Source: an uncultured Bacilli bacterium (GTDB lineage Bacteria > Bacillota_I > Bacilli_A > RF39 > UBA660). From it: a stretch of DNA of 64,000 nt. This document shows, piece after piece, positions 731 through 46,300 of this stretch. The stretch is from NCBI GenBank assembly GCA_947624565.1, contig CANQKX010000001.1, forward strand, positions 44,587 to 108,586, read 5' to 3'. Position 1 is the stretch's first letter. Every line of letters starts with the position of its first letter. The notes under the pieces were generated by a model that searched no databases, was not told the DNA's origin, and saw nothing but the letters and a program-made list of their open reading frames with translations. A program made the translations under genes and the position numbers.

Positions 731-1336
731 ATGAAGAAAAAATTTATTAATTTTTGTTTATCAATTATAACTGATTATAATGATAATTTATCACAAAAAG
801 AAATAGATAAAATGAAATATGGTTTAGAAGGTTTATATCTAACAATAACAAAATTAATTATAATTATCCTTATTTCATTAATTCTTGGAATATTTAAAGA
901 AGTTTTTTTATTGATATTAATTTTTAATGGTATTAGGTTAACTGCCTTTGGAGTTCATGCTAAAAGAAGTATAGATTGCCTTGTATCCTCTTGTTTATTT
1001 TTTATAATATTCCCAATATTATGTATTAAACTTACTATACCAATAATCATAAAACAAATTTTATTTATTCCATTGGTTTTATTAATTGGGATACTTGCTC
1101 CATCTGATACCGAAAAAAGACCATTAAAGAAGAAAAAGAAAAGATTAATATTTAAGTTTTTGTCAATTTTAATAGCCGTAATATATATGTCATTATCTTT
1201 AATAATAAAAGATAATACGATTAGTAATTGTTTTGTGTTTGCTATAATAATTCAAATTATTATAATGCTTCCTATAACATATAAAATATTTGGAGTATCA
1301 TACAACAATTACAAAAAATATGAGGTTAATGTTTAA
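731..1336 (+). CDS. agrB: AgrB-family membrane endopeptidase (AgrD propeptide processing/export)
   Basis: Multi-TM 201-aa protein. The conserved catalytic His...Cys pair is in the motif LTAFGVHAKRSIDC (cf. S. aureus AgrB RRHAHGAHAPSSFWC). A basic loop APSDTEKRPLKKKKKR matches AgrB APAATKKKPIPVRLIKRKK. RBS GAGGAG. Confidence 0.85.
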   Translation: MKKKFINFCLSIITDYNDNLSQKEIDKMKYGLEGLYLTITKLIIIILISLILGIFKEVFLLILIFNGIRLTAFGVHAKRSIDCLVSSCLFFIIFPILCIKLTIPIIIKQILFIPLVLLIGILAPSDTEKRPLKKKKKRLIFKFLSILIAVIYMSLSLIIKDNTISNCFVFAIIIQIIIMLPITYKIFGVSYNNYKKYEVNV

Positions 1337-1360
1337 CCATAGATAAAGGAGGTTGTTTAT

Positions 1361-1480
1361 ATGAAAAAAGTTCTTGCTACTATATTAACAGCTGTTGCTG
1401 CTGTTATTGGAACTGCTGCTACAAGCGCTTGTATTGTTGTTTTATTTGATGAACCAGAAATGCCTGATTCATTAAAATAA
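1361..1480 (+). CDS. agrD: AgrD-like autoinducing peptide precursor (39 aa), missing from the ORF track
   Basis: ATG at 1361 preceded by AAAGGAGG (1346-1353), 24 nt after the agrB stop. MKKVLATILTAVAAVIGTAATSACIVVLFDEPEMPDSLK has a hydrophobic N-terminal leader, a single central Cys (thiolactone candidate) and an acidic C-terminal recognition tail DEPEMP (cf. staphylococcal DEVEVPKEL). Confidence 0.75.
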   Translation: MKKVLATILTAVAAVIGTAATSACIVVLFDEPEMPDSLK

Positions 1481-1500: not shown

Positions 1501-1535
1501 AAAAATAAGATTAACCAACAATTAATCTTATTTTT
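1501..1535. terminator. bidirectional intrinsic terminator between the convergent agrBD and agrAC units
   Basis: Perfect 14-bp inverted repeat AAAAATAAGATTAA / TTAATCTTATTTTT with a 7-nt loop CCAACAA. U-runs follow on both strands. The stem overlaps the agrC stop codon (1534-1536). Confidence 0.6.
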
Positions 1536-2835
1536 ATTTATAATATATTATTATAGTTTGTTTAAATTTATCATCAATAACATCACTAAATGTATCTATA
1601 TCTTTATTATTCTTCTTTATATCTTTAACTATTGATAATCCAAAACCATGACCTACTCCTTTAGTTGAAAAACCTTTCTTACCAACTTGCGTTACATCAA
1701 CTGAATTATCAAAAGTATTTGTTATAGTAATTATTACACTATTATCTTTTGTCTTTATATCTAACTCTATTTCTTTTAAATCTGCATCTTTTGAAGCATC
1801 TATTGCATTATCTATAAAAACTCCAAGTAATTTTGTTACATCCCTATATGTATTTATATCAAGTTTTGATTCAAATATATTTTTTGTATTATTATCAATA
1901 TAAATATAATGCTTTATTTTATTATCTTCCATTTTACTTAATTTATGATAAATTAAACCTTTTATACCTCCATCAGGAAGAGCACTTAATTGTTTAACAT
2001 CATAATTTTGTCCACCGCGTTGTTCTTGAATTATTAAATCTAAATATTCTTTTAATTTATCTGGCTTTTTAATATACCCTTTTAAAACCATTAATTGATT
2101 ATTAAATTCATGATTTTTCTTACCTTGTTCGTTAATTATTTTTTCATATTTAGATACATATTCCATCATTTCATTATACTTATCTTCTAATTTAAATTTT
2201 TGAAAATTATTGTATACAACATATATCAATGTTACAAATACAAATATTACCATACCTACATTTATATAATAAGATAAACTATTTCCTAAATTATATCTAT
2301 TAAAAGTCATTAAAAATATCATTAATACTACTATTATGGTTATATAAATCCATTCTTTATTATTTTTTACTATTAATTTTTCAAATTTTCTTACTGATTT
2401 ACACAAAAATTTGAATTTTGATATTAAAATTATTGCAATTGAATTAAATAGTGAAGAAAATAATACAGAAAATTCGTGATTTGCATATGTATTTAAATCT
2501 AGTTTTAATATAAACAAAACTATCAAGGATAAGACCAATTCAAAAATAAATGCAAATATTTCATAAACTACAGCATAATACACACACTTTGATATATTTT
2601 TATTAAATAAAGTAAAATATAATGCTAAAATCATCATTACAATATTAAAAGATAATCTTGTAACTCCTTCAAAAAAAGTATAAATTAATACAAAAGATGG
2701 AAATAATATTAATACAAATTTTATAAATTTTTTTATATCTTTTTTTTCATTTGAAAAATTTGATATGGATATAATTATAACTATTGATGAAATTATAGAA
2801 CTTAATACAATATTTATTAAATTTATCCAATTCAT
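1534..2835 (-). CDS. agrC: AgrC-like sensor histidine kinase (HPK10 family; multi-TM sensor plus GHKL ATPase)
   Basis: N-terminal ~6-7 TM helices. H-box KNHEFNNQL, N-box GVFIDNAIDAS, G-boxes GVGHGFGLSIV. A 4-nt overlap with the upstream response regulator. Confidence 0.8.
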   Translation of the reverse strand: MNWINLINIVLSSIISSIVIIISISNFSNEKKDIKKFIKFVLILFPSFVLIYTFFEGVTRLSFNIVMMILALYFTLFNKNISKCVYYAVVYEIFAFIFELVLSLIVLFILKLDLNTYANHEFSVLFSSLFNSIAIILISKFKFLCKSVRKFEKLIVKNNKEWIYITIIVVLMIFLMTFNRYNLGNSLSYYINVGMVIFVFVTLIYVVYNNFQKFKLEDKYNEMMEYVSKYEKIINEQGKKNHEFNNQLMVLKGYIKKPDKLKEYLDLIIQEQRGGQNYDVKQLSALPDGGIKGLIYHKLSKMEDNKIKHYIYIDNNTKNIFESKLDINTYRDVTKLLGVFIDNAIDASKDADLKEIELDIKTKDNSVIITITNTFDNSVDVTQVGKKGFSTKGVGHGFGLSIVKDIKKNNKDIDTFSDVIDDKFKQTIIIYYK

Positions 2836-3488
2836 TTATTCACACTCCTTTCTTTTTTTGATTGTTTGACTAAAAACTTTTTATTTTGTTTATTAATATA
2901 ATACATATCATTTTTTTTATAAAATCTATAGTCTAAATTTTTTATTAGAAGTTTAAATGGTGTATATGTTTTATAATAATTATCTTTTGTTTTCACAACA
3001 GTATATTTTTTTATATGATCATGTTTAATAAAATATATGTCTTTAAGGGGTATCTTTAAATTTTTGTTATTAATTTGTATTTTTATATATTTATTAATAT
3101 TTAATGATTCAATTCCTTTAATAATTATTTTTGATAAATTTGATTCATAATCTTCAAATTTCGATACATAATCAAATATCATTAATTTTGATTTTAATGT
3201 ATATGGCAGATATTCAGTATGAGTTGTAGATATTATAATTAAACTATTTAAATCTATATCTCTAATATTTCTAGCTATATCAATACCAGATATATCTTCT
3301 AGTTCTATATCTAAAATGTAAATCTTATTTTCTATGTTGCTTAGTATTATTTTATTTAGTTCTTCTGAATAGTTTGAAAAAGGATATATTCTATAATCAA
3401 TATTATTTTCAAACATTGTTTTATTTATTATATCTATATTTTTTTGTAATATTATTTTATTATCTTCACACACAATAAAATTTACCAT
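2832..3488 (-). CDS. agrA: AgrA-like response regulator (REC + LytTR DNA-binding domain)
   Basis: Receiver domain with the Asp in YILDIELEDISGIDIARNI. C-terminal LytTR-type domain (IKIQINNKNLKIPLKDIYFIKHDHIKKYTVVKTKDNYYKTY). RBS AGGAG. Stop overlaps the agrC start (ATGA). Confidence 0.8.
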   Translation of the reverse strand: MVNFIVCEDNKIILQKNIDIINKTMFENNIDYRIYPFSNYSEELNKIILSNIENKIYILDIELEDISGIDIARNIRDIDLNSLIIISTTHTEYLPYTLKSKLMIFDYVSKFEDYESNLSKIIIKGIESLNINKYIKIQINNKNLKIPLKDIYFIKHDHIKKYTVVKTKDNYYKTYTPFKLLIKNLDYRFYKKNDMYYINKQNKKFLVKQSKKERSVNK

Positions 3489-8388: not shown

Positions 8389-8458
8389 TTTTATTTCTCC
8401 TTCCGCCATAACTAATTTTTAGTTATAGAATTACTAAAATCTTCTATATTATATCAAG

Positions 8459-31620: not shown

Positions 31621-32565
31621 TTACTTTACCTCTTTCTTTGCTGTTTTTTTAACTATTAAATTTTGAATTATTGTAAACAATGTTGATGCTATCCAATATA
31701 GTGATAATGCTACTGAAAAGTTTAGTGACATAATTGCAATCATTATAAGTAAGAAATTAGTCATTGTATTTGGATTTATATCATCTGTTTGTGGTGTTGG
31801 CGCAGTTGTGTTTAATTTTTGTGATATAAATGTTGTTCCTATTATTAATATAACTATTATTGCATACTCAATATGACCTGAAGTAATTGCTTTTAAAGGA
31901 GTTGTTCCTAATATAAGTCCAAATAAATTTTCTTCAAATATAACAGGAACTCTATTTATTGCTTCTAAAAATCCAAATAATAATGGAATTTGTATAAATG
32001 CAAATAAACAACTTGAGAAAGGATTAATATTATATTTTTTGTATAATGTCATCATTTCCATAGATTTTTGATTTAATGATTGTTGATCTGTTTTATTTTC
32101 ATATTTTTTATTTATTCTATCCATTTCTGGTTGCATTTTTTTCATGTTTTCAGATTGCATAGCTGTCTTCTTTGTAAAAGGTGCCAAAATAAGTCTAATT
32201 ATTATAGATAATATTATCAATGCTATACCATAACTTTTAACTAAACTACCAATTTTAATCGTTAACCATGCTAATGGTTTAACTACTAATGTTTCCCATA
32301 AATTATTATAATTTCCATCACTTGGTGTAAAATTTGAACATTCTGGCAATTTTTCTATATTTATTTGTTTTTTGTACTCATTATATTTTTTTATAAGTCC
32401 TTTATTAGTTGGTTTACATAATATATTTTGATTTAATGTTATTTTTACTTTATCATCCTCGTATGTAACAACCTTTTTTGTTTTTGGGTCTTTTAGTGTT
32501 ACTGTACATCCTGTAAGTAGTATTATTAATAAAAAAATAAATATTCTTTTTATATTTTTTCTCAT
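31621..32565 (-). CDS. yidC: membrane protein insertase YidC/SpoIIIJ (lipoprotein form)
   Basis: Lipobox LLTGC, YidC TM core and a C-terminal basic tail. Confidence 0.85.
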   Translation of the reverse strand: MRKNIKRIFIFLLIILLTGCTVTLKDPKTKKVVTYEDDKVKITLNQNILCKPTNKGLIKKYNEYKKQINIEKLPECSNFTPSDGNYNNLWETLVVKPLAWLTIKIGSLVKSYGIALIILSIIIRLILAPFTKKTAMQSENMKKMQPEMDRINKKYENKTDQQSLNQKSMEMMTLYKKYNINPFSSCLFAFIQIPLLFGFLEAINRVPVIFEENLFGLILGTTPLKAITSGHIEYAIIVILIIGTTFISQKLNTTAPTPQTDDINPNTMTNFLLIMIAIMSLNFSVALSLYWIASTLFTIIQNLIVKKTAKKEVK

Positions 32566-32575
32566 AAAATTTCTC

Positions 32576-32905
32576 CTAATCTAACATCTTTGTAAATAAT
32601 TTTATTAAATTTTCTTTTTTTTCTTGATAATTTAACTCATTTATTTCTTTCTTTATAATTATAACATAATCATATGAAGAATTAAATATTAAATTGCTTT
32701 TATCTATAATATCTTTTATTTGTCTTTTTACCTTATTTCTCTCAACAGCATTACCTATCTTTGTTGAAATGCATATTGCAAATCTATATTTATTAAGGTT
32801 ATTTTTTCCACTATATATTGAAAAATATTTATTTTTTATGCAATTTTTATTATTTATTATTTTATTAATTTCATAATTTTTTTTAATAATATTTATTTTT
32901 TTCAT
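32576..32905 (-). CDS. rnpA: ribonuclease P protein component
   Basis: 109-aa basic protein between rpmH and yidC with an RnpA-like RNR motif region (KVKRQIKDII). Confidence 0.8.
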   Translation of the reverse strand: MKKINIIKKNYEINKIINNKNCIKNKYFSIYSGKNNLNKYRFAICISTKIGNAVERNKVKRQIKDIIDKSNLIFNSSYDYVIIIKKEINELNYQEKKENLIKLFTKMLD

Positions 32906-32951
32906 TAATTCACCTACTTACAAAAAAAACCACTAGTATAAAGTGGAATTA

Positions 32952-33074
32952 TTATTTAGATAAAGTCTTACGTCCTTTTTTTCTTCTATTATTTAATACT
33001 TTACCTTTTACTCTAGAAAAAAATCCATGTTTTTTTGCTTTCTTTCTATTATTAGGTTGAAATGTTCTTTTCAT
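32952..33074 (-). CDS. rpmH: 50S ribosomal protein L34 (40 aa; below the ORF-track size cut-off)
   Basis: Minus-strand [40 protein letters not shown], canonical L34 (MKRTFQP...GRK.L). RBS GGAGGTG. Confidence 0.85.
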
Positions 33075-33138
33075 TTTAACACCTCCAGCTCATAAAACAT
33101 TACAATTATATATTTTTTTTAAAAAAAAGTCAATAATT

Positions 33139-33666
33139 TTAATTTTGTGATAACTTTTTTTCTTTATTTTTTCTTTCTGAAATTATTTCTTCTAATACTT
33201 CATCACATATTCCTTCAATTTTTTTGATTGATTCTTTATTTCTTTGGGTGTGACATAAATCAACAAAATAATTATATGATTCTTCGTCTGCTTCTTTATA
33301 TTGGCTTATATCCACATAAGATCTTACATATCCCTTTCTATTATAAGTTGAGGCTATATTTCCTTGAACATCATAAAATGAATAACCAATTTTAACTACA
33401 GAATGAAAATCATTTGAAGCTGATGTATAAATTTTTGAATCATTTTCAAAAATCTTATTCAACATATGTGAAAAATAGTAACAACTTCCTTCCATAAATA
33501 TTGACATTGTAAGTTGATATTTTGTATCTTCGTCTAATTTTTGAAAATCAGAATCAGAATCAAGATATTTTTGAGAAAATTTACTTATAATTGAATCAAT
33601 TACATCTAAAATAGGTTCACTTTGCTTATTTATTAACTCTGATACTTTTTTAAAATAATCTTCCAT
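33139..33666 (-). CDS. hypothetical cytoplasmic protein (no recognisable family) heading the rpmH-rnpA transcription unit
   Basis: 175 aa, acidic/aromatic-rich, no TM. Occupies the position where rpmH normally faces dnaA. Confidence 0.4.
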   Translation of the reverse strand: MEDYFKKVSELINKQSEPILDVIDSIISKFSQKYLDSDSDFQKLDEDTKYQLTMSIFMEGSCYYFSHMLNKIFENDSKIYTSASNDFHSVVKIGYSFYDVQGNIASTYNRKGYVRSYVDISQYKEADEESYNYFVDLCHTQRNKESIKKIEGICDEVLEEIISERKNKEKKLSQN

Positions 33667-33773
33667 AAAAAACCTCTTTCCTTAGAATTTATACAATATT
33701 ATACATTTTTTTAGATAAATTTCAATATTTTTTATAAAAACAATATGATATAATGTAAATAGGAAGTGATTTT

Positions 33774-35135
33774 ATGATAAATATTAAAACTGATTCAAGA
33801 AAAGTTAAGGAAGGAGATACTTTTATAGCAATTAAAAATGTTAATACTGATGGACATGATTTTATTAATCAAGCAATTGAAAATGGAGCTAAAAAAATAA
33901 TTTGTGAACATGGAGAATATCCTGTTGAAACTGTAATTGTTAATAATACAAAAGAATTTTTAAATAAATATTTATATGATAATTATTATGAAAAAATTAA
34001 AGATATGAAATTAATTGGTGTAACAGGAACCAACGGAAAAACAACTATTTGTTATTTAGTTTATCAAATATTGACATTACTTAATAAAAAATGTGCATAT
34101 ATAGGAACAATTGGTTTTTTCTGTGGAAATATAAAAAGAGAATTGAATAACACAACTCCTGATACAGATTTATTATATGAAATGTTTTTAGAAGCAAAAG
34201 AAAATAATTGTGAATATATTGTTATGGAAGTAAGTAGTCATGCCCTTGATAAAAATAGAATTTATGGATTAGAATTTGATGAAGTAGCCTTTACAAATCT
34301 TACACAAGACCATTTAGATTATCACAAAACTATTGAAAATTATATTGAAGCAAAAAAGAAATTATTTTTTAGAACTAGAAATAATAAAATTGCTATTATA
34401 AATGCTGATGATAAATATTATAAAAATTTTCTAAATAAAGATAATAAAAATATTTTGATAAGTGAAAATAATGCAGATTTATCTATTAAAAAAATTAATT
34501 TATCTCATCTTAATACTAATATCATATTTAACTTTGAAAATATTGAATATGAAACTACAATAAATATGATAGGAAAATATAATGTTTATAATTTTTTAAC
34601 AGCCTTGTTACTTGTAAATAAATTAGGATTTGATATAAAAGATATCTTAAAAATTACAAATAAATTAAATGCTCCAAATGGTAGAATGGAGTTAATAAAA
34701 TATAAAACAAATAGTATTTTTATTGATTATGCACATACCCCAGATGCTGTTTTAAATGTTTTAGAAAATGCTAAAGAATATAAAAAAGGAAAAATTATAA
34801 CAATTATTGGTTGTGGAGGGGATAGAGATAGATCAAAAAGACCAATAATGGGAAAAATTGCTGAAGAAAATTCTGATTTTGTTATTTTTACTAATGATAA
34901 TCCAAGAACAGAAGATGAAAATCAAATTATGAATGATATTATTAATGGGTTAAGTAAAAAAAATCATGAAATAATTTTAGATAGAGAAGAGGCTATAAAA
35001 AAAGGAATATCCTTATTAAATAATAATGATATATTAATGGTTTTAGGAAAAGGGCATGAAGATTATCAAATAATTGGAAATACAAAATATCATTTTAGTG
35101 ATAAAGAAATAGTTTTGAAATATATTAAAATATAA
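33774..35135 (+). CDS. murE: UDP-N-acetylmuramoyl-L-alanyl-D-glutamate--2,6-diaminopimelate (or L-lysine) ligase MurE
   Basis: Mur ligase P-loop GVTGTNGKTT and a DNPR-type C-terminus (FTNDNPRTED). Slightly short N-terminus. Confidence 0.85.
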   Translation: MINIKTDSRKVKEGDTFIAIKNVNTDGHDFINQAIENGAKKIICEHGEYPVETVIVNNTKEFLNKYLYDNYYEKIKDMKLIGVTGTNGKTTICYLVYQILTLLNKKCAYIGTIGFFCGNIKRELNNTTPDTDLLYEMFLEAKENNCEYIVMEVSSHALDKNRIYGLEFDEVAFTNLTQDHLDYHKTIENYIEAKKKLFFRTRNNKIAIINADDKYYKNFLNKDNKNILISENNADLSIKKINLSHLNTNIIFNFENIEYETTINMIGKYNVYNFLTALLLVNKLGFDIKDILKITNKLNAPNGRMELIKYKTNSIFIDYAHTPDAVLNVLENAKEYKKGKIITIIGCGGDRDRSKRPIMGKIAEENSDFVIFTNDNPRTEDENQIMNDIINGLSKKNHEIILDREEAIKKGISLLNNNDILMVLGKGHEDYQIIGNTKYHFSDKEIVLKYIKI

Positions 35136-35146
35136 GGAGTCTATGT

Positions 35147-36526
35147 ATGAAAAAGATTTTAATAAAAGATATTTTAAATATATGCAATGCAGAATTATTT
35201 TTTGGAAAGAAAAATTTAATATGTAATTATTTTTCTAATGATACTAGAAAAATAAAAAAAGGGGATATATACATTGGTATTAAAGGAAATAACTTTGATG
35301 GAAATAAATTTTATGATGATGCTTTTCAAAAAGGCGCAAAAGCATGCATTTTAGAAAAAAAATATTTTGATAAAAATAATTTTGATAAAATAAAATATAA
35401 AAATAAAACTATAATTCTTGTTGATAATTCTATTGAAGCCTTACAAAAAATTGCAGAGTATAAACGTTCTTTATATAATATACCAGTAATAGCAGTAACG
35501 GGTAGTGTTGGTAAAACAAGTACAAAAGATATAATTGCAAGCACATTAAGTGAAAAATATAAAGTTTTGAAAACTGAAGGTAATTATAATAATCATATTG
35601 GTTTACCATTAACTATATTAAAGTTAAATAAACATAATGCAATGGTTTTAGAAATGGGAATGAATAATTTAGGAGAAATTCATTTATTAAGTAAAATTGC
35701 TAAACCTACAATTGCAGTTATTACAAATATAGGAACAGCTCATATTGGTAATTTAGGATCTAGAGAAAATATATTAAAAGCAAAACTTGAAATTACAGAT
35801 TTTTTAGATGAAAATGGAGTTCTTATTATAAATAATGATAATGATTTATTACACGAAAATTTAAATTTCTTAAAAAATAAGTTAAAATTAATTACAATCG
35901 GTATTGAAAATGATAGTGATTTTATAGCAAAAAATATTAATTTTGATATATTTAAAAGTAAATTTGAAATAGAAAATAACGTAATAAAAATAAATGTAGG
36001 AGGATATCCTTATATTTATAACTCTTTATTTGCATATTCTATTGGTAAATATTTAAATATTAAAGAAAATAAAATAATAAAAGGAATAGAAAATTTTAAA
36101 TTATCAAATAATAGAATGGAAAAAATAATTAATAATAAGGGAATAACTATTATAAATGATACATATAATGCTAGTTATGATTCAACTATATATGCCATTG
36201 ATTTAGTTGATAAATCTAATTATAAAAGAAAAATTTTATTACTTGCAGACATCTTAGAACTTGGTAAATTTTCTAAAGAAATCCACAGTAAAATAGGTAA
36301 TTATATTATTAATAAAAATATAGATTATGTAATTTTGGTGGGTAATGAAGTAAAATATATTAAAGATATTTTAGAAAAAAATAATTTTAATAATATATAT
36401 TTATTTAATAAAGAAGAAGAAACTTATGACTTTTTAGATAACTTTTTACAAAAAGAAGATATTATATTAATAAAAGGTTCTCATGCAATGAATTTAATTA
36501 ATATTGTTAACTATTTAAAAAAGTGA
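35147..36526 (+). CDS. murF: UDP-N-acetylmuramoyl-tripeptide--D-alanyl-D-alanine ligase MurF
   Basis: P-loop AVTGSVGKTSTK and a Mur ligase middle and C-terminal domain. A terminator hairpin AAGTGAA-aataaa-TTCACTT plus T-run overlaps its stop (36520-36548). Confidence 0.85.
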   Translation: MKKILIKDILNICNAELFFGKKNLICNYFSNDTRKIKKGDIYIGIKGNNFDGNKFYDDAFQKGAKACILEKKYFDKNNFDKIKYKNKTIILVDNSIEALQKIAEYKRSLYNIPVIAVTGSVGKTSTKDIIASTLSEKYKVLKTEGNYNNHIGLPLTILKLNKHNAMVLEMGMNNLGEIHLLSKIAKPTIAVITNIGTAHIGNLGSRENILKAKLEITDFLDENGVLIINNDNDLLHENLNFLKNKLKLITIGIENDSDFIAKNINFDIFKSKFEIENNVIKINVGGYPYIYNSLFAYSIGKYLNIKENKIIKGIENFKLSNNRMEKIINNKGITIINDTYNASYDSTIYAIDLVDKSNYKRKILLLADILELGKFSKEIHSKIGNYIINKNIDYVILVGNEVKYIKDILEKNNFNNIYLFNKEEETYDFLDNFLQKEDIILIKGSHAMNLINIVNYLKK

Positions 36527-36540
36527 AAATAAATTCACTT

Positions 36541-36740
36541 TTTTTGTGGAAAAAATATGACTTTTTTATTATAATATAAGGAAAAATTTAATTATAAACA
36601 TTATCAACATATTTGTGGATAAATATAAAATATTTATAAACATGTTGTTTATATAAAATTTGTGGAAATTGTGGAAAACTATAGAATTTTATTATTTTAT
36701 AACAATTTTTATAAACTTTTATTGTTGATAATTTTTTAAC
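36541..36740. promoter_or_regulatory. oriC-associated DnaA-box cluster and dnaA promoter region
   Basis: DnaA-box 9-mers: TGTGGATAA perfect at 36614-36622; one-mismatch boxes TTATCAACA (36601), TGTGGAAAA (36545, 36670), TGTGGAAAT (36661) and TGTTGATAA (36723). Confidence 0.65.
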
Positions 36741-36814
36741 ACATTATTTTTTTGTTGAAATAAAAGAAAAATAGGTTATAATTAAGTTATAAATACTTCA
36801 GGGGAGATGATAAT

Positions 36815-38185
36815 ATGAACATTGATAATATTTGGAATCAATTTTTAAATATAATAAAAACAAGATTATCTTCTCTTTCATATAATACTTGGTTTAGCTC
36901 GTCTAAACTTGTTGAATTAAATGAAGAACATGCTGTTATAATTGTTCCAACGATTGCTCATAAAAAACATTTATCTGAATCATATATAGATATTATAAAT
37001 GAAATATTTAATGATATAACAGGAACTAATTTTAATATTGAATTTGTATTAGAAAATGAATATGAAAAAAATAAAAATCAAACTAGTAAAAATATTGAAA
37101 ATGATATAGAAGAATATGGTGTTCCTTATAATAGTAGTGAGAAAGCTAATTTAAATCCAGATTATACTTTTGAAAATTTTATAGTAGGTGAAAGTAATAG
37201 ATTTGCACAAGCGACTGCTCTTGCTGTTGCTGAAAATCCTGGAAAAATGTATAATCCTTTATTTATATATGGAAATAGCGGATTAGGTAAAACCCATTTA
37301 ATGCAAGCAATTGGAAATTATATAATAAAAAATAGTAATAAAAGAGTATTATATGTTACTAGTGATCAATTCATCAATGATTTTCTTGGTTTAAATAAAA
37401 AAGATAAAGATGGAACTAATTTTGATTATGTTGAAATATTTAAAGATAAATATAGAAATATAGATGTATTAATTATTGATGATATTCAATTTTTAGGGAA
37501 TGCTCCAAAAACACAAAATGAATTTTTTCACACATTTAATACATTATATGATGATAAAAAACAAATAATTATTTCTTCTGATTCTTCTCCTGATGATTTA
37601 AAACATTTAGAGGATAGGTTAAGAACAAGATTTAATTGGGGATTAAAAGTAAATATTTTTCCACCTGATAATAATCTTAGAAAAGAAATATTAAGAAAAA
37701 AAATGGCAAATATGGATTTTTCTAGACATATTACTGAGGATGCGATTGATTATATTGCTAACATGTGTGCTTCTGATGTAAGAAGTTTAGAAGGTGCTTT
37801 AACAAGAGTTTGTGCTTATTCAACTATCTTTTTTGAAGAAGAAATTACACTTGATCTTGCTGTTGAAGCTTTAAAAGGAACAATTTCTCAAACTTCTAAC
37901 TTTAAAAACGATATTCAAAAGATACAAAGAATTGTTGCTGAATATTATAATGTATCTGTTGAAGATTTAAAATCAAAAAAAAGAGTAGCAAGTATTGCTT
38001 TTCCTAGACAAATTGCTATTTACTTATCAAGATTATTAACTGATGAATCATTTCCAAGAATTGGTATGGAATTTGGAGGAAGAGATCATTCAACTGTAAT
38101 TCATTCATGTGATAAAATTGAAAAAGAAATTAAAAATAATAAGCAATTAGAAAAAATAATAGAAGAAATTAAATTAAAATTATAA
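36815..38185 (+). CDS. dnaA: chromosomal replication initiator protein DnaA
   Basis: AAA+ Walker A GNSGLGKTHL, DnaA signature and a C-terminal DNA-binding domain. Confidence 0.95.
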   Translation: MNIDNIWNQFLNIIKTRLSSLSYNTWFSSSKLVELNEEHAVIIVPTIAHKKHLSESYIDIINEIFNDITGTNFNIEFVLENEYEKNKNQTSKNIENDIEEYGVPYNSSEKANLNPDYTFENFIVGESNRFAQATALAVAENPGKMYNPLFIYGNSGLGKTHLMQAIGNYIIKNSNKRVLYVTSDQFINDFLGLNKKDKDGTNFDYVEIFKDKYRNIDVLIIDDIQFLGNAPKTQNEFFHTFNTLYDDKKQIIISSDSSPDDLKHLEDRLRTRFNWGLKVNIFPPDNNLRKEILRKKMANMDFSRHITEDAIDYIANMCASDVRSLEGALTRVCAYSTIFFEEEITLDLAVEALKGTISQTSNFKNDIQKIQRIVAEYYNVSVEDLKSKKRVASIAFPRQIAIYLSRLLTDESFPRIGMEFGGRDHSTVIHSCDKIEKEIKNNKQLEKIIEEIKLKL

Positions 38186-38363
38186 TATGTTGAAAAGTTT
38201 AAGTTATCTACATTTTAATTAACAATAATAAACAGACAAAAATTCTATAAAATGTTATAAAATAAAGAAAATTTATACTTTTAAACATTTTAAACAGTAA
38301 TAATAAAAATAAAATCATTAAATTAATAATATATATGATATAATTCATTGTAGGAGGTTTAAA
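38186..38363. promoter_or_regulatory. dnaA-dnaN intergenic region: DnaA box plus AT-rich putative DNA-unwinding element
   Basis: TTATCTACA (38204-38212, one mismatch) followed by >100 bp of >85% AT. Confidence 0.4.
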
Positions 38364-39485
38364 ATGAAGTTTAGCATTAAAAAAGAAATATTATTAGAAA
38401 ATTTAAATAATGTATCAAAGGCAGTATCAACAAAAAATGTTATACCTGTTCTTGGAGGAATTAAATTTAATTTAACTAAAGAAGGATTATTTTTAACAGC
38501 TACTAATAGTGATATAGATATAGAAAGTTTTATTGATAAAAAATATATAGATAAAATAGAATCAACAGGAACAATTATTATTCAAGGAAAATATCTTCTT
38601 GAAATAATTAGAAAATTACCGGATGGTCTTATTAATATAGAAATAATAGATGGATTAAAAATATTAATATATACTCAAAATTCAAATTTCAATTTAAATG
38701 GTATTGATTCATCAGAATTTCCTAATATAAATTTAGATATATCTACAAATCCTATTATACTAAGTAAGAGAGTAATAAAAAATATAATTAATCAAACTTT
38801 ATTTGCAACATCTATGCAAGAAGCAAGACCAATATTAACAGGAATTAATATAAAAATAGAAAATGATAAAATGGAATGCGTTGCAACAGATTCATATAGA
38901 CTAGCAAAAAAAGTGGTTAATTTAGATAATAGTGTAGATAATTTAATAAATATAGTTATTCCTGGAAAAAATATTGGAGAACTTAATAAAATATTAACTG
39001 ATGATGATGATAATGTTGAAATACATATATTTTCTAATAAAATATTATTTAAGTTTGATAATTTATTATTTCAATCTAGATTATTAAATGGAACTTTTCC
39101 TGATACTTCAAGATTAATTCCAGATGAATTTGAAATAGAGATAAAAGCTGATTTAAATGAATTCTTTGGTGTAATTGATAGAGCAGCTTTATTAACATCT
39201 GAAAAAGAGAAAAATGTAATAAAGTTTGAAACAAACAAAAATGAAGTAACTGTAAGTTCAAATACTCCAGAAATAGGTAGAGTAGAAGAAAAATTAATGG
39301 TTACTAAAAATAATGATAAAGAAATAAAAATATCTTTCTCATCTAAGTTTATGATGGAAGCATTAAGAACAATTAATAGTAAAGATATAAAAATATTATT
39401 AAATTCTGATATAAAGCCAATTATTTTAAAAACTGACGAAGATGATGGTTTAACACAATTATTATTACCTATTAAGACATATTAA
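38364..39485 (+). CDS. dnaN: DNA polymerase III beta sliding clamp
   Basis: MKFSIKKEILLENLNNVSKAVS...; three-domain clamp, 373 aa. Confidence 0.95.
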   Translation: MKFSIKKEILLENLNNVSKAVSTKNVIPVLGGIKFNLTKEGLFLTATNSDIDIESFIDKKYIDKIESTGTIIIQGKYLLEIIRKLPDGLINIEIIDGLKILIYTQNSNFNLNGIDSSEFPNINLDISTNPIILSKRVIKNIINQTLFATSMQEARPILTGINIKIENDKMECVATDSYRLAKKVVNLDNSVDNLINIVIPGKNIGELNKILTDDDDNVEIHIFSNKILFKFDNLLFQSRLLNGTFPDTSRLIPDEFEIEIKADLNEFFGVIDRAALLTSEKEKNVIKFETNKNEVTVSSNTPEIGRVEEKLMVTKNNDKEIKISFSSKFMMEALRTINSKDIKILLNSDIKPIILKTDEDDGLTQLLLPIKTY

Positions 39486-39600
39486 AAGAAAAAAATGTAT
39501 TTTTTCTTTTTTTATCCTAAAAATCGACAAATTTTGCGAAAAAAAGTGTTATTAATATAGGCAAATTATTATTTTTAATAATTTTAAAGGAGGGGATTTT

Positions 39601-40047
39601 ATGGAACAATATGAAATAAATTCTAAAACAATAGCTCTTATACCAATTGAAGAAAATATGAGTAAAGTAATTGAAGAGGATAATTCTTTTGTAGTAAAAA
39701 TGAAGACTATGGAAATTATAAAAAGAAGTTGTGAATATTTTGGAAGTACTTATTTAGGAAGACATATAGGAACAAAAAAATTAACTGGAATTTCTTATAA
39801 ATCTCCAATAATAATTGAAGAAAGTAAAAATATTATATATTTTCCAACTTCATCACCAAGACAAAATGAATGTATATGGATGTCATTAAAACATATATTA
39901 AATTATAAAGAAAATAATGGTAAATCAATAGTATTCTTTGAAAATGGTGAGAATATAGAAATAGATGTATCATATAATTCTTTTGATAATCAATACTTAA
40001 GAGCTACAAAATTAGAATCTATTTTAAGAAAAAGAAAAATGAATTAA
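39601..40047 (+). CDS. comK: ComK-family transcription factor (short form, 148 aa)
   Basis: Matches B. subtilis ComK blocks: YEINSKTIALIPIEEN ~ YEVNGATIAVLPEE; RSCEYFGSTYLGRHIGT...SYKSPIII...IYFPTSSPRQNECIWMS ~ RSCRFFGSSYAGRKAGT...SHKPPIMV...FLFPTLSSTRPQCGWIS; ISYNSFDNQYLRA ~ ISYNSFENQVYRT. RBS AAAGGAGGGG. Confidence 0.65.
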   Translation: MEQYEINSKTIALIPIEENMSKVIEEDNSFVVKMKTMEIIKRSCEYFGSTYLGRHIGTKKLTGISYKSPIIIEESKNIIYFPTSSPRQNECIWMSLKHILNYKENNGKSIVFFENGENIEIDVSYNSFDNQYLRATKLESILRKRKMN

Positions 40048-40183
40048 TACAAAAATAATAAATTTTTGTATTTTTTTATAAAAAAGTAAAAAAAAGCCCT
40101 ATTTTGTGTTATAATTATATTGTGTGTATAGTAGCATTATTTTAGTATAAAGGTGATAATATGGTCATAAAAATAGGTTTAAA

Positions 40184-41290
40184 ATGTTTCTAGAAAAAAT
40201 TGAACTTAAAAATTTTAGAAATTATTCAAATTTAAAATTAAATTTTGATAAAAATATAAACATTTTTATAGGAAATAATGCTCAGGGGAAAACCAATATA
40301 TTAGAAAGTATATATTTTTTATCAATTACTAAATCTCATAGAACAAATAAAGAAATCTTTTTGATAAAAAATAATGAGATTTTTTCCAAAGTCACAGGAA
40401 TTATTAAAGACAATTCAAATTTTTCAAAAAAATATGAAATTATTATTAATAAACAAGGTAAAAGAGTACTTATTAATGATAATCTTATAAAAAAGATAAG
40501 TGATTACTTATCTAATATAAATGTTGTAATGTTTTGTCCAGATGATTTAGAGATAATAAAAGGTACTCCTTCTAATAGAAGATCTTTTCTAAATATTGAA
40601 ATAGGACAATTAAACAATTTTTATATAAAACATTTAAATAATTATAATAGACTATTAAAAACAAGAAATGATTATTTAAAAAATAGTAAAGAAAAGTTTG
40701 ATAATGTTTATTTTGAGATATTGACTAATAAATTAATTGACGAAAATATAAAAATAATTAATTTTAGAAATGAATTTATTAATAATTTAAATAAATATAT
40801 TTCTAAAATATATAAAGACATAACAGGTAAAAAAAATATATACTTAAAATACGAAACTTTTATAGATATTAATTCAGAAGAAAATATGATTAAATCTATG
40901 AAAGAAAAATACGATAAAAATTTAAATAATGAAATATTTCAGGGGGTTACTCTATTTGGTACACATAAAGATGATTTTTCGGTATACATAGATGATATAA
41001 AAATAAATAATTATGGATCTCAAGGACAACATAGAATTGCAATATTATGTATTAGATTATCAGAGATTGAGATATTTAAAAAAGAAAAAAAGAAAAATCC
41101 TATATTATTATTGGATGATATATTCAGTGAATTAGATGAAATTAAAAAAAATAATATTATTAGATATATAGATAATGATTTACAAGTTTTTATAACATCT
41201 ACAGATATTGAAAATATAGATAATAAATTGCTTAAAAATTCAAATATTTTCTATGTAAAAGAAGGAAACGTAATAAGAAAGGAAGATTAG
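40184..41290 (+). CDS. recF: DNA replication and repair protein RecF
   Basis: Walker [15 protein letters not shown] and an SMC-like signature. Confidence 0.9.
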
Positions 41291-41294
41291 AGTT

Positions 41295-43214
41295 ATGACA
41301 GATAATAATTATGATGCTTCAGCAATACAAGTACTAGAAGGTTTAGAAGCAGTAAGAAAAAGACCAGGTATGTATATAGGAACAACAGATGTTAAAGGAT
41401 TACATCATTTAGTATGGGAAATAGTTGATAATGCAATAGATGAAGCTCTAGCTGGTTATTGTAAAAATATTGAAATAATAATAAATAAAGATAATTCAAT
41501 AACTGTAAAAGATGATGGACGTGGAATTCCTGTAGGTATACATAAAAAAACTGGAATATCTACCGTTGAAACAGTTTATACAGTACTTCATGCCGGTGGT
41601 AAATTTGGAGGAGGAGGATATAAAGTATCAGGAGGACTTCATGGTGTAGGAGCATCTGTAGTTAATGCATTATCAAGTTCAGTAGTAGTAACAGTTTATA
41701 AAGATGGAAAAATATATGAAGTAAAGTTTGAAAATGGTGGAAAAATAAAACAACCTTTAACTGTTGTTGGAGAATGTGATAAAAATAGAACAGGAACAAC
41801 AGTTACTTTTAAACCAGATGCAGATATTTTTGATACTGAAATATATGATTATGAAACATTAAAGGTTAGAACAAGAGAACTTGCTTTCTTAAATAAAGGA
41901 TTAAGATTAACATTAAGAGATGATAGAAAAGGTGATAGTACAACAGGAGAAACTTTTATTTATGAGGGTGGTATTAGTGAATATGTAAAATTTTTAAATA
42001 AAAATAAAACTCCTATTCATGAAGAAATAATTCATTTAGAAGGAGAAGAATCAGGTGTTATGTTCGAAGTTGCAATGCAATATAATTCTAGTTATACAGA
42101 TAATATATATTCATTTGTAAACAACATAAATACACATGATGGTGGAACTCATGAAGAAGGAGTAAAAAGAGCCTTAACTAGAATAATTAACAATTATGCA
42201 AGAAAAAACAATATATTAAAAGAAAAAGATGAGTCTTTAACAGGTGATGATGTTAAAGAAGGGTTAACAATGATTATTTCTTGTAAACACCCAAATCCAC
42301 AATTTGAAGGACAAACAAAAGGAAGACTTGGAAATTCAGAAGTTAGAAAAATAGCAGATAATGTTTTTGCAGGTGGTTTTGAAAGATTTTTAATGGAAAA
42401 TCCAGATGAAGCAAGAATAATAGTAGAAAAAACAATGACTGCTGCAAGAGCAAGAGTAGCAGCTAAAAAGGCTAGAGAATTAACAAGAAGAAAAAGTGAT
42501 TTAGATGTAGTTAACTTTGGTGGAAAACTTAATGATTGTAAAGAAAAGGATCCAAGTGTTTGTGAAATATTTATAGTAGAGGGAGATTCAGCAGGAGGTT
42601 CTGCTATTAAAGGTAGAGATTCAATGACTCAAGCAATACTACCTCTTAGAGGAAAAATATTAAATGTAGAAAAGGCAAGAATTGATAGAGCATTATCAAA
42701 TGAAGAAATAAGAACAATAATTACTGCCTTTGGTACAGGAATAGGTGAAGAATTTGATTTAAATAAACTTAGATATAATAAAATAATAATAATGACGGAT
42801 GCCGATGTAGATGGATCACATATTAGAGTATTACTTTTAACTTTATTTTATAGATTTTTTAGACCTATTGTTGAAACAGGCCATGTGTATGCTGCACAAC
42901 CACCATTATTTTCTATAAGTCATGGAAAGACTATAAAATATGTTCTTAATGAAGAAGAAAGAGATGAGTATATTGCTTCATTAAATCCTAATACAAAATA
43001 TGAAGTAAAGAGAATGAAAGGTTTAGGAGAAATGGATGCAGAAGAGTTGAATGAAACAACAATGGATATTAATAAAAGAGTTCTTAGAAAAATAACAATA
43101 GAGGATGCCATAGCTGCAGATGAAGCTTTCTCAAAATTAATGGGTGAAGAAGTAGAACCTAGAAGGCAATTTATAGAAGAAAATGCAAAATATGCAGAAA
43201 ACTTAGATATATAG
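41295..43214 (+). CDS. gyrB: DNA gyrase subunit B
   Basis: GHKL ATPase, TOPRIM (EGDSAGG), C-terminal ...ENLDI. Confidence 0.95.
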
Positions 43215-43230
43215 GAAGGAGTATAAAATA

Positions 43231-45675
43231 ATGGATCATAGTAGAGATAGATTAGAAGAAAACAATATAGTAGATGAAATAGAATCATCTTTTATAGAAT
43301 ATTCAATGAGTGTAATTGTATCACGTGCTCTTCCAGATTTAAGAGATGGTCTTAAACCTGTTCATAGAAGAATTTTATGGTCAATGTATGAATCAGGATA
43401 TACTCCAGATAAGCCTCATAAAAAATCCGCTCGTATTGTTGGTGATGTTATGGGTAAATATCATCCACATGGAGATTCAAGTATATATGAAGCAATGGTT
43501 CGTATGGCTCAAGATTTTAGTTATAGAAATATGCTAGTAGATGGTCATGGAAATTTTGGTAATATAGAAGGTTATGGTGCAGCAGCAATGCGTTATACTG
43601 AGTCTAGATTATCAAAAATTTCACTTGAAATGCTTAGAGATATAAATAAAAACACTGTTAATTTTAAACCAAACTTTGATGAATCAGAAAAAGAACCAGA
43701 GATTTTACCATCTAGATTTCCAAATATATTAGTAAATGGAACAATGGGTATTGCTGTTGGTATGGCAACAAATATTCCACCACATAATTTAGGTGAAGTA
43801 ATAGACGGATGTATTGCATATATAGATAATCCAGAAATAGACACAGCAGGATTAATGGAATATATAAAAGGACCAGATTTTCCAACAGGAGGAATAATAT
43901 TAGGTAATAGTGGAATAAAAAAAGCATATGAAACAGGAAGAGGAACTATTACAATTAGAAGTAGAGCAAGAATAGAAGAAGAAAAAGGAAAACACTTAAT
44001 TATAATCGATGAGGTTCCATATGGTGTTAATACAATGGAATTAAAAAATAAGGTTGCAGAACTTGTTCATAATAAAACTATAGATGGTATTGCTGATTAT
44101 CATACAGACTTAAAAAATGGTGTAAAAATTACAATAACATTAAAGAAAGATGCAAATGCACAAGTTGTTTTAAATAATTTATATAAACATACATCATTTC
44201 AAACAAATTTTGGAATAATTTTCTTAATGTTAGATCAAGGAGTACCAAAAACTCTAGGACTTAAAGATATTATTTCAAAATATGTTGAATATCAAAAAGA
44301 AATAATTATAAGAAGAACAAAATTTGATTTAGATAAAGCTGAAAAAAGAGTTCATATTTTAGAAGGATTAAAGATTGCTTTAGATCATATAGATGAAGTT
44401 ATTAAATTAATAAGAGGTTCAAAAACAGATGAAGAAGCAAAATCTGGTTTAATGAATAAATTTGGTTTAAGTGAAGCACAATCAGATGCAATTCTTGAAA
44501 TGAAGTTAAGAAGATTAACAGGATTAGAAAGAGATAAAATTGAAAATGAATTAAATGAATTATTAGATAAAATAAATGAATTTAAATTAATTTTAGCATC
44601 TGATGAAAAAATATATGGAATTATCAAAACTGAATTGTTAGAAATAAAAGATAAATATAGTGATGATAGAAGAACAAGTATAGATATGACAGCAATAGAT
44701 TACATTGAAGATGAATCTTTAATTCCAGTAGAAGATATAATTGTAACTTTGACAAATAAGGGATATATTAAAAGATTAACAACAGATACATATAAAGTTC
44801 AAAATAAAGGTGGAGTTGGAGTAAAGGGAATGTCTACTAATGAAGAAGACTTCGTTGAACAAATGTTAACTCTAAAAACACATGATCATGTTCTATTCTT
44901 TACTAATAAAGGAAAAGTATATAGAATAAAAGGATATGAAATACCTGAATTTTCAAGACAAGCTAAGGGATTACCAATAATAAATCTATTACCAATTGAA
45001 AAAGATGAATTTGTAAAAGCAATATTACCAATAACTGTTGATGATGATATTGCTACAAAATTAGTAACTTTTGTAACAAAAAATGGTCTTGTAAAACGTA
45101 CTGATATATCAGAATTTGAAAATATAAGAAAAACCGGTAAAATAGCAATAAATTTAAAAGAAGATGATGAGTTATTATTTGTTAGCTTAACAACAGGAAA
45201 TGATGAAATTGTAATAGGTGCATCAAATGGTAGATTAGTAAGATTTAATGAAAATGAAATAAGAATTATGGGAAGAACAGCAAGTGGAGTAAAAGGAATT
45301 GATATACCAAATGGAGTTAATTGTGTAAGTGCAGAAAAAGTAAATAAAGAAAGTGATATATTAATAATTACTGAAAAAGGTTATGGAAAACGTACGAAAA
45401 TTGATGAATATAGATTAACTCATAGGGGAAGTAAAGGGGTTAAAGCATTAAATATAACAGAAAAAAATGGAAATTTAGTTTCAGTAAAAAATGTTAATGA
45501 AAATGAAGACTTAATGATTATAACAAACAGTGGTATTGTTATTAAAATTCCAGTTAATCAAGTATCAAAGATGAGTAGAGTAACTCAAGGTATAAGATTA
45601 ATAAATTTAAAAGAAAATCAAAAAGTTACCACAATTGCTACTACAAAAGAAGAAGAAGAGACTATAAATGAATGA
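43231..45675 (+). CDS. gyrA: DNA gyrase subunit A
   Basis: Catalytic Tyr region (AAMRYTE), a QRDR-like segment ([17 protein letters not shown]) and a GyrA-box beta-pinwheel C-terminus. Confidence 0.95.
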
Positions 45676-45767
45676 ATAGTCTTTTTTTTACAAAAAGCGA
45701 ACAAAATATTTCCCGGGAAATATTTTACGAACAAAAAGCGAACAAAAAAATAAAAAATAATATTTAT

Positions 45768-45796
45768 TTGACTTATTTATATTAATGTAGTATAGT
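45768..45796 (+). promoter_or_regulatory. near-consensus sigma-A promoter driving the small SRP RNA
   Basis: TTGACT (45768-45773), a 17-nt spacer, then TATAGT (45791-45796). Confidence 0.5.
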
Positions 45797-45802
45797 TTTA
45801 AT

Positions 45803-45880
45803 GCACAACGGGAATATTGGAACCAGGTCAGGATAGAAATATAGCAGCCTTAACAATCAATTTTCGTGTGTGCTTTTTTT
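45803..45880 (+). ncRNA. ffs: signal recognition particle RNA (small 4.5S-type ffs/scr)
   Basis: CCAGGUCAGGAUAGAAAUAUAGCAGCC aligns position-for-position with the universally conserved SRP domain IV CCAGGUCAGGUCCGGAAGGAAGCAGCC (GNRA-type GAAA tetraloop, conserved flanks). The 5' GCACA pairs with the 3' UGUGC, followed by a U7 terminator. tadA follows it, as in B. subtilis (tadA-scr-dnaX). Confidence 0.65.
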
Positions 45881-45892
45881 GTGGAGGAATGT

Positions 45893-46300
45893 ATGAGTAT
45901 AATTAATATAGAAAAAGAATTAAATAAATTAATATTAAAAGCATTAAAGTATAATGAGGTTCCAATTGCAGCAATAATAATAAAAAATGGTAAAATTATA
46001 AGTAAAGCTTATAATAAAGTTAATAAAACTAATAATTTTATGGATCATGCAGAAATAATATCTATAAAAAAAGCAATAAAAAAATTAAAAAATTGGAGAT
46101 TAAAAGAATGCATAATGTATGTTAGTTTAGAACCTTGTGCAATGTGTAAAGAAATTATAAAAAAATCTAGAATAGAAGAAGTATATTATTTTGTTAATCA
46201 GAATGCTGAAAAAACTGAAAAAAATCCTAATTATAAAAAAATAAATTCTACAACTGATTTTTCAACAACATTAAAAAAATTTTTTGTTAATAGACGATAA
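45893..46300 (+). CDS. tadA: tRNA-specific adenosine deaminase TadA (CDA-fold)
   Basis: Zn motifs HAE(IISIKKA) and PCAMC. The start at 45893 (MSIINIEKELNK) has the RBS GGAGG; the track's start at 45866 would overlap the SRP RNA and its terminator. Confidence 0.8.
   Translation: MSIINIEKELNKLILKALKYNEVPIAAIIIKNGKIISKAYNKVNKTNNFMDHAEIISIKKAIKKLKNWRLKECIMYVSLEPCAMCKEIIKKSRIEEVYYFVNQNAEKTEKNPNYKKINSTTDFSTTLKKFFVNRR

Follow-up and report, generated by a model that had tools for sequence, protein, structure and literature searches.

Among the described agr systems, those of Staphylococcus aureus and Staphylococcus epidermidis make autoinducing peptides (AIPs) with five-residue rings and exocyclic tails of 2 to 4 residues, from AgrD precursors with an amphipathic leader and a recognition tail of 14 to 15 amino acids (aa). 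Six-residue, tail-less AIPs are known from clostridia: the CVLVTL product of Clostridium acetobutylicum ("R6T0," from CVLVTL|YEPKMP) was inferred from synthetic peptides and later detected by mass spectrometry (MS) (PMC8251862; PMC10301443; PMC4916163), and Rc-AIP1 of Ruminiclostridium cellulolyticum (CWFWSY) is a six-residue homodetic cyclopeptide. In Clostridium perfringens, a tail-less peptide, 5R, is the likely natural signal. According to Molloy et al., every clostridial AIP detected lacked a tail and had rearranged from a thiolactone to a homodetic lactam by an S-to-N acyl shift (PMC8251862). One survey counted 29,921 AgrDs in RefSeq (via PF04647 and TIGR04223) and 43 characterised AIPs, and AIP families of the human microbiome have already been catalogued and synthesised. 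Since AgrD mining is routine and such families are catalogued, the gene described here is a new case within a known kind: a 39-aa agrD in a 64-kb stretch of contig CANQKX010000001.1 from an uncultured Bacilli bacterium, the whole of which is called the window below. By every sequence criterion that could be tested, the open reading frame (ORF) at 1361-1480 is a genuine agrD. The best overall explanation, which we hold to be probable, is that it is functional and encodes the precursor of a cyclic AIP in a single-copy agr locus; no second agrBD pair was found when the 64-kb window was searched for another agr locus. Family membership, synteny, conservation, a fixed spacing register, a hypervariable core, and co-variation of core and sensor are documented here.

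The ORF occupies 1361..1480 of the forward strand, begins with ATG, and encodes 39 aa (MKKVLATILTAVAAVIGTAATSACIVVLFDEPEMPDSLK) with only one cysteine, at residue 24 (TGT, 1430-1432); inspection of the ORF found no alternative in-frame start. An earlier note, made from the letters of this stretch alone, had described the ORF, its single Cys24, and its C-terminal DEPEMPDSLK, all of which the sequence bears out. The 24-nucleotide (nt) spacing that it gave for the ribosome-binding site (RBS) is the distance from the end of agrB to the ATG, but the RBS itself lies nearer to agrB: the Shine-Dalgarno motif AAGGAGG can be read at 1346..1352 of the forward strand, 8 nt before the start codon. An RBS-like motif precedes the equivalent small ORF in every related locus scored. 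The gene had been called unannotated because the ORF track available to the earlier note stopped at 60 aa; the identical peptide is already called as a gene on nine contigs of public assemblies (NCBI, ENA, and Logan), although the calls carry neither a name nor a Pfam hit.

Residues 1-23 (MKKVLATILTAVAAVIGTAATSA; 1361..1429, forward strand) form a signal-peptide-like leader made up of a KK pair, a hydrophobic core, and small residues at positions -3 and -1 relative to the cysteine. The grand average of hydropathy (GRAVY) of this leader is 1.89; it is uniformly hydrophobic rather than amphipathic, and a leader of the same type is found in C. perfringens AgrD, which is proven. Residues 24-29 (CIVVLF; 1430..1447, forward strand) are the predicted six-residue macrocycle and specificity determinant, and residues 30-39 (DEPEMPDSLK; 1448..1480 including the stop codon, forward strand) constitute the recognition tail that AgrB is predicted to remove.

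Membership in the AgrD family, for which the earlier note had proposed alignment to family profiles, is supported by the NCBIfam AgrD model TIGR04223, which gives 33.1 bits against a cutoff of 19 (E = 4e-8) and covers residues 4-39. The preceding gene, agrB (731..1336, forward strand; 201 aa), encodes a membrane peptidase-cyclase predicted to process AgrD (Pfam PF04647, 110.9 bits, E = 6e-32). This protein has about four hydrophobic segments, and its His76 and Cys83, 7 residues apart and invariant in 14 homologues, match the catalytic dyad His77/Cys84 of S. aureus AgrB. In 85 related loci, agrB is likewise followed by a small ORF that has an RBS. Processing by AgrB at the acidic tail, as the earlier note had predicted, is thus supported by the profile matches, the dyad of AgrB, and the agrB-agrD synteny. 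Two features weigh against the assignment: the staphylococcus-centred Pfam model (PF05931) narrowly misses the peptide, at 20.1 bits against a cutoff of 22.7, and the recognition tail has 10 residues, compared with 14 to 15 in staphylococci.

A phmmer search of 1.84 billion representatives returned 18 matches, of which 11 were additional clusters of AgrD-like peptides, each showing the C-x5-DEP register. A word-indexed protein search, for which AgrD was padded by one upstream codon, matched the peptide itself only, a result that would also suit a chance ORF or a tiny lipoprotein or secreted peptide that is no substrate of AgrB and has a signal peptide, a lipobox cysteine, and a mature 16-mer (CIVVLFDEPEMPDSLK). 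The leader and cysteine of the window peptide, like those of 44 of 67 relatives, do satisfy the permissive PROSITE-type lipobox rule, but so does the AgrD of C. perfringens, a proven AIP precursor. Moreover, the residue at -3 is invariably Thr and not the usual Leu, the "mature" product would amount to just 16 aa, the ORF invariably comes immediately behind agrB in the 85 loci, and variation in the core tracks the kinase sensor, as detailed below. With the TIGR04223 score above its cutoff and the C-x5-DEP register shared by 11 further clusters, the evidence for the AgrD family outweighs the lipobox match, and the lipoprotein reading was rejected as extremely improbable. Automated pipelines could nonetheless mislabel such peptides as lipoproteins, given the match to the lipobox rule in the window (1361-1432), in those 44 relatives, and in C. 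perfringens AgrD.

The remaining 7 of the 18 phmmer matches were discarded as chance matches to VLFDEPEMP within long "proteins" composed of repeated VSVLFSEPKIPQ / FQCSSASRKFLN units. Six database "proteins" (P0253, P0254, P0256, and P0262-P0264) consist of repeated VSVLFSEPKIPQ / FQCSSASRKFLN / FSALQRAENSSI units between variable stretches and are probably translated repeat-spacer arrays, CRISPR-like in organisation. Searching the full-text literature for "DEPEMP" found nothing relevant.

Related loci were gathered via AgrB (9 genomic and 80 metagenomic), and those with AgrB identity of at least 70% were taken as a close clade of 40 loci with 35 distinct peptides. The convergent four-gene layout is kept in nearly all of the approximately 90 related loci, and the spacing from the cysteine to the motif [DE]-E-[PEV]-x-x-P is exactly six residues in 83 of 85. 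Within the close clade, the flanks G-T-V-A-T-[TS]-G and D-E-P-E-M-P show almost no variation, with entropies of 0 to 1.0 bit at positions -7 to -1 and no variation among the 35 distinct sequences at the D, E, P, M, and P of the tail. Entropies between these flanks are 1.9 to 2.4 bits at C+1 to C+3, 0.6 bit at C+4, and 1.0 bit at C+5. The most conserved core position is C+4, which is L in 31 of the 35 peptides, and C+5 is always L or F. The 40 loci contain 29 different cores, composed only of I, V, L, F, A, M, and G, and the core CIVVLF occurs, among the compared loci, in the window only.

The predicted ring CIVVLF has a GRAVY of 3.67, compared with 2.97 or less for the characterised AIP rings examined, and the 29 cores of the clade range from 2.83 to 3.78 (median, 3.37). 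The earlier description of the signal as unusually hydrophobic therefore holds with respect to characterised AIPs, but such hydrophobicity is the norm within the clade, and the predicted ring, which contains a phenylalanine, is not all-aliphatic as the earlier note had stated.

Several relatives depart from the arrangement of cysteines seen in the window. The AgrD homologue at L007:4606-4710 (MMADFLANLFARLTTGATTYTWLFVWDETEYPED) lacks cysteine and has a threonine exactly six residues ahead of the D-E motif, which suggests that a Thr-lactone AIP is possible. In the AgrD ORFs of L051-L061, L068, L070, L074, and L080-L082, a second cysteine is conserved in the tail, where DEPECPKS replaces DEPEMP, and the AgrD of L077 has two cysteines within its core (CLWGCF).

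The earlier note had named as its first choice a Cys+4 ring, CIVVL, with a TSA or SA exocyclic tail, and CIVVLF as the other option. This form is the less likely one, and the product is predicted, with fairly high confidence, to be the six-residue ring CIVVLF. A profile hidden Markov model (HMM) was trained on AgrDs whose rings are known or likely to comprise five residues (S. aureus I-IV, S. epidermidis, Listeria, and C. perfringens), using what we take to be their sequences, that of C. perfringens included. The window peptide has a tail that lines up with the dEpevP..L motif shared by the staphylococcal, Listeria, and C. perfringens AgrDs, and the model can align the cysteine together with this motif only by means of a one-residue insertion inside the ring. 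The order in the window is C24-IVVLF-D30, followed by E31, P32, E33, M34, P35, D36, S37, and L38. In S. aureus AgrD, residues E34 and L41, at positions +2 and +9 from the end of the ring, are required for processing by AgrB (PMC10482373), and E31 and L38 match them only if the ring ends at F29 and cleavage falls at F29|D30. The Cys-to-EP register of the C. acetobutylicum precursor (C-x5-Y-E-P-K-M-P) equals that of the window. Substitutions at C+5 occur both within the species (F to L) and between the alleles CLVVLF and CLVVLL, which differ at that position alone.

If AgrB instead cut after L28, the product would be a five-residue thiolactone, CIVVL, in which an SA or TSA exocyclic tail stabilises the thioester. 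Most characterised AIPs have five-residue rings (PMC4916163), staphylococcal AIPs have tails, and the strong conservation of C+4, together with the restriction of C+5 to L or F, could place C+5 outside the signal as a P1' residue. With such a cut, however, the invariant E and L would stand at +3 and +10, which agrees neither with S. aureus E34/L41 nor with any of the aligned five-ring AgrDs. The constant spacing of six residues is that of the MS-verified six-ring peptide of C. acetobutylicum, allelic substitutions reach C+5, and the residues of the proposed tail are conserved across pherotypes, as expected of a processing site. The five-residue ring is thus an improbable alternative to CIVVLF. 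Three points temper the six-residue prediction: HMMER mis-registered the cysteine of the experimentally six-ring C. acetobutylicum AgrD, so that alignment alone is fallible for ring size; the call draws on the alignment register and on analogy with a handful of characterised systems; and the moderate variability of C+5 in the close clade also fits a conserved hydrophobic P1' residue.

The residues ahead of the cysteine are conserved across pherotypes, with T at -3 and G or A at -1, and, coming where the signal-peptide-like leader ends, they look like a site of the signal-peptidase type. C. perfringens AgrD has the same junction, ATSA|C. Given this conserved site, the tail-less 5R peptide of C. 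perfringens, and the AIPs reported by Molloy et al., a tail-less lactam is favoured, and a product rearranged to homodetic cyclo(CIVVLF) appears somewhat likelier than the other forms taken together. The computed monoisotopic values for cyclo(Cys-Ile-Val-Val-Leu-Phe) are M = 674.3825 and [M+H]+ = 675.3898.

In the maturation pathway that we propose, AgrB would use His76 and Cys83 and recognise the invariant tail DEPEMPDSLK, cut between F29 and D30, and pass the acyl group to the Cys24 thiol, yielding the six-residue thiolactone C-I-V-V-L-F. The leader would most likely be removed directly ahead of Cys24 (T-S-A|C), and the resulting tail-less thiolactone would undergo an S-to-N acyl shift to give the homodetic cyclohexapeptide cyclo(CIVVLF). 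The receptor of this cyclic peptide would be the kinase encoded at 1534-2835, which would sense it through a polytopic sensor domain; all steps downstream of the kinase we infer.

Compared with characterised clostridial precursors, the window AgrD would group functionally with those of six-residue, tail-less AIPs, as judged from its sequence and by analogy. C. acetobutylicum resembles the window in its C-x5-[YD]-E-P-x-M-P pattern, in a six-residue, largely aliphatic ring without a tail, and in having agrBD and agrCA as separate transcription units. Its leader, in contrast, is long, charged, and amphipathic (GRAVY, -0.99), whereas that of the window is short, hydrophobic, and signal-peptide-like (1.89). 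Clusters of the C. acetobutylicum type also have a LanM-like gene (CA_C0082) immediately downstream, whereas no LanM- or LanC-like gene was found among the neighbours of the agr locus in the window, and C. acetobutylicum AgrA has a full LytTR domain, unlike the window regulator. For Rc-AIP1, which is six-residue and tail-less and rearranges from thiolactone to lactam, the same chemistry is predicted in the window, but Rc-AIP1 has an aromatic and polar core (GRAVY, 0.23 versus 3.67), and it has been demonstrated experimentally, whereas the window product is a prediction. C. perfringens AgrD (core CLWFT, 5R) shares with the window a hydrophobic leader that starts MKK and ends ATSA|C and a likely tail-less signal; it differs in its five-residue ring, in having Pro at Cys+7 instead of Cys+8, and in a receptor system, VirS/VirR, that is encoded elsewhere.

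A second allele from the species of the window (L091/P0002) encodes an AgrD of the form MKKVLATILTAVAAVIGTAATSAC-FFVLL-DEPEMPDSLK, with the core CFFVLL (L091:2572-2691). Its core differs from CIVVLF at C+1, C+2, and C+5 only. All seven nucleotide differences between the two agrD alleles fall within codons 22-29, and codons 1-21 and 30-39, as well as the downstream hairpin described below, are identical. The kinase of L091 shows a corresponding discontinuity: its sensor (residues 1 to approximately 185) is 36 to 56% identical to that of the window per 25-residue block, approximately 47% overall, and its kinase module (from approximately residue 200) is 88 to 100% identical per block, mostly 100%. 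The regulators are 98% identical, and the C-terminal parts of AgrB are 99% identical. The kinase of this second-pherotype locus lies at L091:1229-2521, and the locus is also present in L094 and L095.

The same relationship recurs in a human-gut sister clade, where pairs of loci with the same core have sensors that are 97 to 100% identical, and pairs with different cores have sensors that are only 62 to 79% identical even when their kinase domains are 92 to 99% identical. For CLVVLF and CLVVLL, which differ at C+5 alone, the sensors are 69% and the kinases 99% identical. As read from the sequences, this pattern of core and sensor is the classic signature of agr specificity groups, or pherotypes. 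Because core and sensor co-vary, the six-residue stretch is taken to be the signal determinant and the convergently encoded kinase its receptor, and their co-diversification indicates a system under selection rather than in decay.

This kinase gene (1534..2835, reverse strand) encodes an AgrC-like sensor histidine kinase of 433 aa, with a sensor at approximately residues 1-205, His242 in the motif HEFNN, and a GHKL ATPase domain. It matches Pfam HATPase_c_5 (E = 2e-13) and the NCBIfam AgrC model (E = 1e-21, below the equivalog cutoff). Among PDB sequences, it best matches 6e52, the kinase module of S. aureus AgrC (E = 2e-15), and the phospho-accepting histidine of that module aligns with His242. 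With six to seven hydrophobic segments within residues 1-207, it has the features of an AgrC-type (HPK10) polytopic histidine kinase.

The response regulator (2832..3488, reverse strand; 218 aa) has an intact receiver, in which D9, D60, and K110 are kept, followed by a shortened and diverged LytTR-like remnant at approximately residues 128-202. For this protein, Pfam reports Response_reg only, with no LytTR (PF04397) match at E <= 1; 14 of 18 aligned relatives do match LytTR. A family-specific LytTR HMM matches the regulator over positions 2-76 of approximately 110 (E = 1.4e-9). A deletion removes approximately 18 residues following the "IN" motif, and N-D-M stands in place of H-x-S. The AlphaFold2 model of the regulator (mean predicted local distance difference test, 83.5) has a confident beta-rich domain at 128-200, and its fold is closest to that of full-length ComE (4cbv; E = 5e-11). 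AgrA contacts DNA through H169, N201, and R233; the equivalents in the window regulator are presumably a Lys, an Asp, and a residue that is deleted or uncertain. The shortened form of LytTR is common to relatives of the regulator that are 206 to 225 aa long. In the human-gut "CAG-433-like" sister clade, the regulator is reduced to a receiver of 130 to 145 aa that ends right at the start of the kinase gene, as seen in more than 25 independent contigs. Such receiver-only ORFs are found in L012-L050 (for example, L012:5586-6020). Alongside the shortened as well as the receiver-only regulator, kinase, AgrB, and AgrD are intact and still diversifying.

The earlier note had spoken of an AgrC/AgrA pair. 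The kinase is indeed AgrC-like, but the regulator has no LytTR detectable by Pfam, only the shortened remnant, and so lacks the complete LytTR DNA-binding domain of an AgrA-type regulator. Since this domain is incomplete, a canonical LytTR-driven autoinduction loop cannot be assumed, which detracts from the case for a functional system. The agr system might even be decaying or orphaned, such that AgrD may be made but yields no transcriptional output and its peptide is no working quorum signal. The absence of a Pfam LytTR, the deletion of approximately 18 residues, and the loss of H-x-S in the window would be in keeping with decay, as would the receiver-only regulator of the sister clade and the lack of any further LytTR protein in the 64-kb window and in the sister-clade loci. 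Against decay, dozens of independent contigs carry the four agr genes as intact ORFs, D9, D60, and K110 persist in the receiver, and the LytTR remnant is 50 to 68% identical among relatives and is predicted to fold. In addition, kinase domains remain 92 to 100% identical while sensors and cores co-diversify, which points to ongoing selection on signal-receptor pairs and makes decay very unlikely. A more specific variant of a working system is a rewired agr circuit, in which a partly or wholly LytTR-less regulator has a non-canonical output, possibly non-transcriptional or dependent on a partner, and which employs many tail-less, all-hydrophobic, six-residue pherotypes (at least 2 in the species and at least 29 in the sister clade). 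We offer this reading tentatively and consider it doubtful.

Relative to the agr systems of S. aureus and S. epidermidis, the locus in the window shares the His/Cys dyad of AgrB, the D-E-P/V-x-V/M-P..L tail (E at +2 and L at +9), a hypervariable core, a co-varying AgrC sensor that defines pherotypes, and a kinase of the HPK10 type. It differs from them in the ring size, exocyclic tail, leader, and recognition tail given above and in gene organisation, since staphylococcal agrBDCA is one operon and the window has two convergent units and a regulator with an incomplete LytTR. AgrB is hypervariable in S. aureus, whereas the window AgrB lies outside the hypervariable region in the part that could be compared between alleles, the C-terminal part, which is 99% identical.

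Between the convergent agrD and kinase genes lies an AT-rich hairpin with a 14-bp stem (1501..1535, no strand assigned), preceded by a run of A and followed by a run of T. Its RNA fold has a free energy of -10.2 kcal/mol (z = -5.6), none of 200 shuffled sequences was equally stable, and it is conserved in the second allele. From its sequence it looks like a bidirectional terminator. A scan for consensus terminators missed it because the stem is not G-C-rich, and in DNA of 20% G+C such scans were uninformative, with 38 promoter-like sites against 41 expected and no terminators. A search of the regions ahead of agrB and ahead of the regulator gene for AgrA-type direct repeats or conserved operators recovered only AT-rich low-complexity repeats and the conserved promoter region of the cold-shock gene.

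The gene adds one predicted AIP to a heavily mined family. Its practical value lies in a sharper, testable prediction of the product, cyclo-CIVVLF at m/z 675.3898 instead of a tailed CIVVL. The pair CIVVLF/CFFVLL, with matched sensor alleles, is a natural pherotype pair within one uncultured species and could be used for studies of cross-activation and cross-inhibition. What goes beyond the ordinary are the many all-hydrophobic pherotypes and the eroded regulator output domain. The incomplete LytTR of the regulator is the sole departure from the textbook circuit, and it would matter if the system proves active.

The host is an uncultured gut bacterium of the Bacillota (Bacilli) related to "Clostridium sp. 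CAG:433," and its very AT-rich DNA contains approximately 22% G+C (range, 20 to 26%). The closest relatives of its AgrB, at 75 to 85% identity, come from gut metagenomes and from metagenome-assembled genomes labelled "Bacilli bacterium" and "Clostridium sp. CAG:433." Genes near the agr locus encode a cold-shock protein, a hibernation factor, and CHAP, Glycos_transf_4, MreB, and SpoIIID proteins. The agr cassette adjoins the same cold-shock-protein gene throughout the clade (423-730 in the window; L002 and L012-L046), a shared neighbourhood that indicates vertical inheritance of the agr locus. The region between csp and agr contains a conserved ...ATTCAAG...CCAAAA(A/T)TTCGACA block, perhaps the csp promoter. 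In L004 (CAYWKX010000024.1) and L006 (CAVBMP010000113.1), an agr locus of the Firmicute type occurs in bins labelled Muribaculaceae and Bacteroides helcogenes, labels that probably result from binning contamination.

Elsewhere in the window, approximately 32000-46000 is the region of the chromosomal replication origin, with a change in the sign of the GC skew near 32-33 kb and a flip in gene orientation. It contains the genes for YidC (31621-32565, reverse strand), DnaA (36815-38185), DnaN (38364-39485), GyrB (41295-43214), and GyrA (43231-45675), and the agr locus is approximately 30 kb away. Two structured RNAs score above the Rfam gathering threshold: the bacterial small signal recognition particle RNA (45797-45882, forward strand; 54.9 bits) and an L31-Firmicutes ribosomal-protein leader (8397-8428, reverse strand; 35.1 bits).

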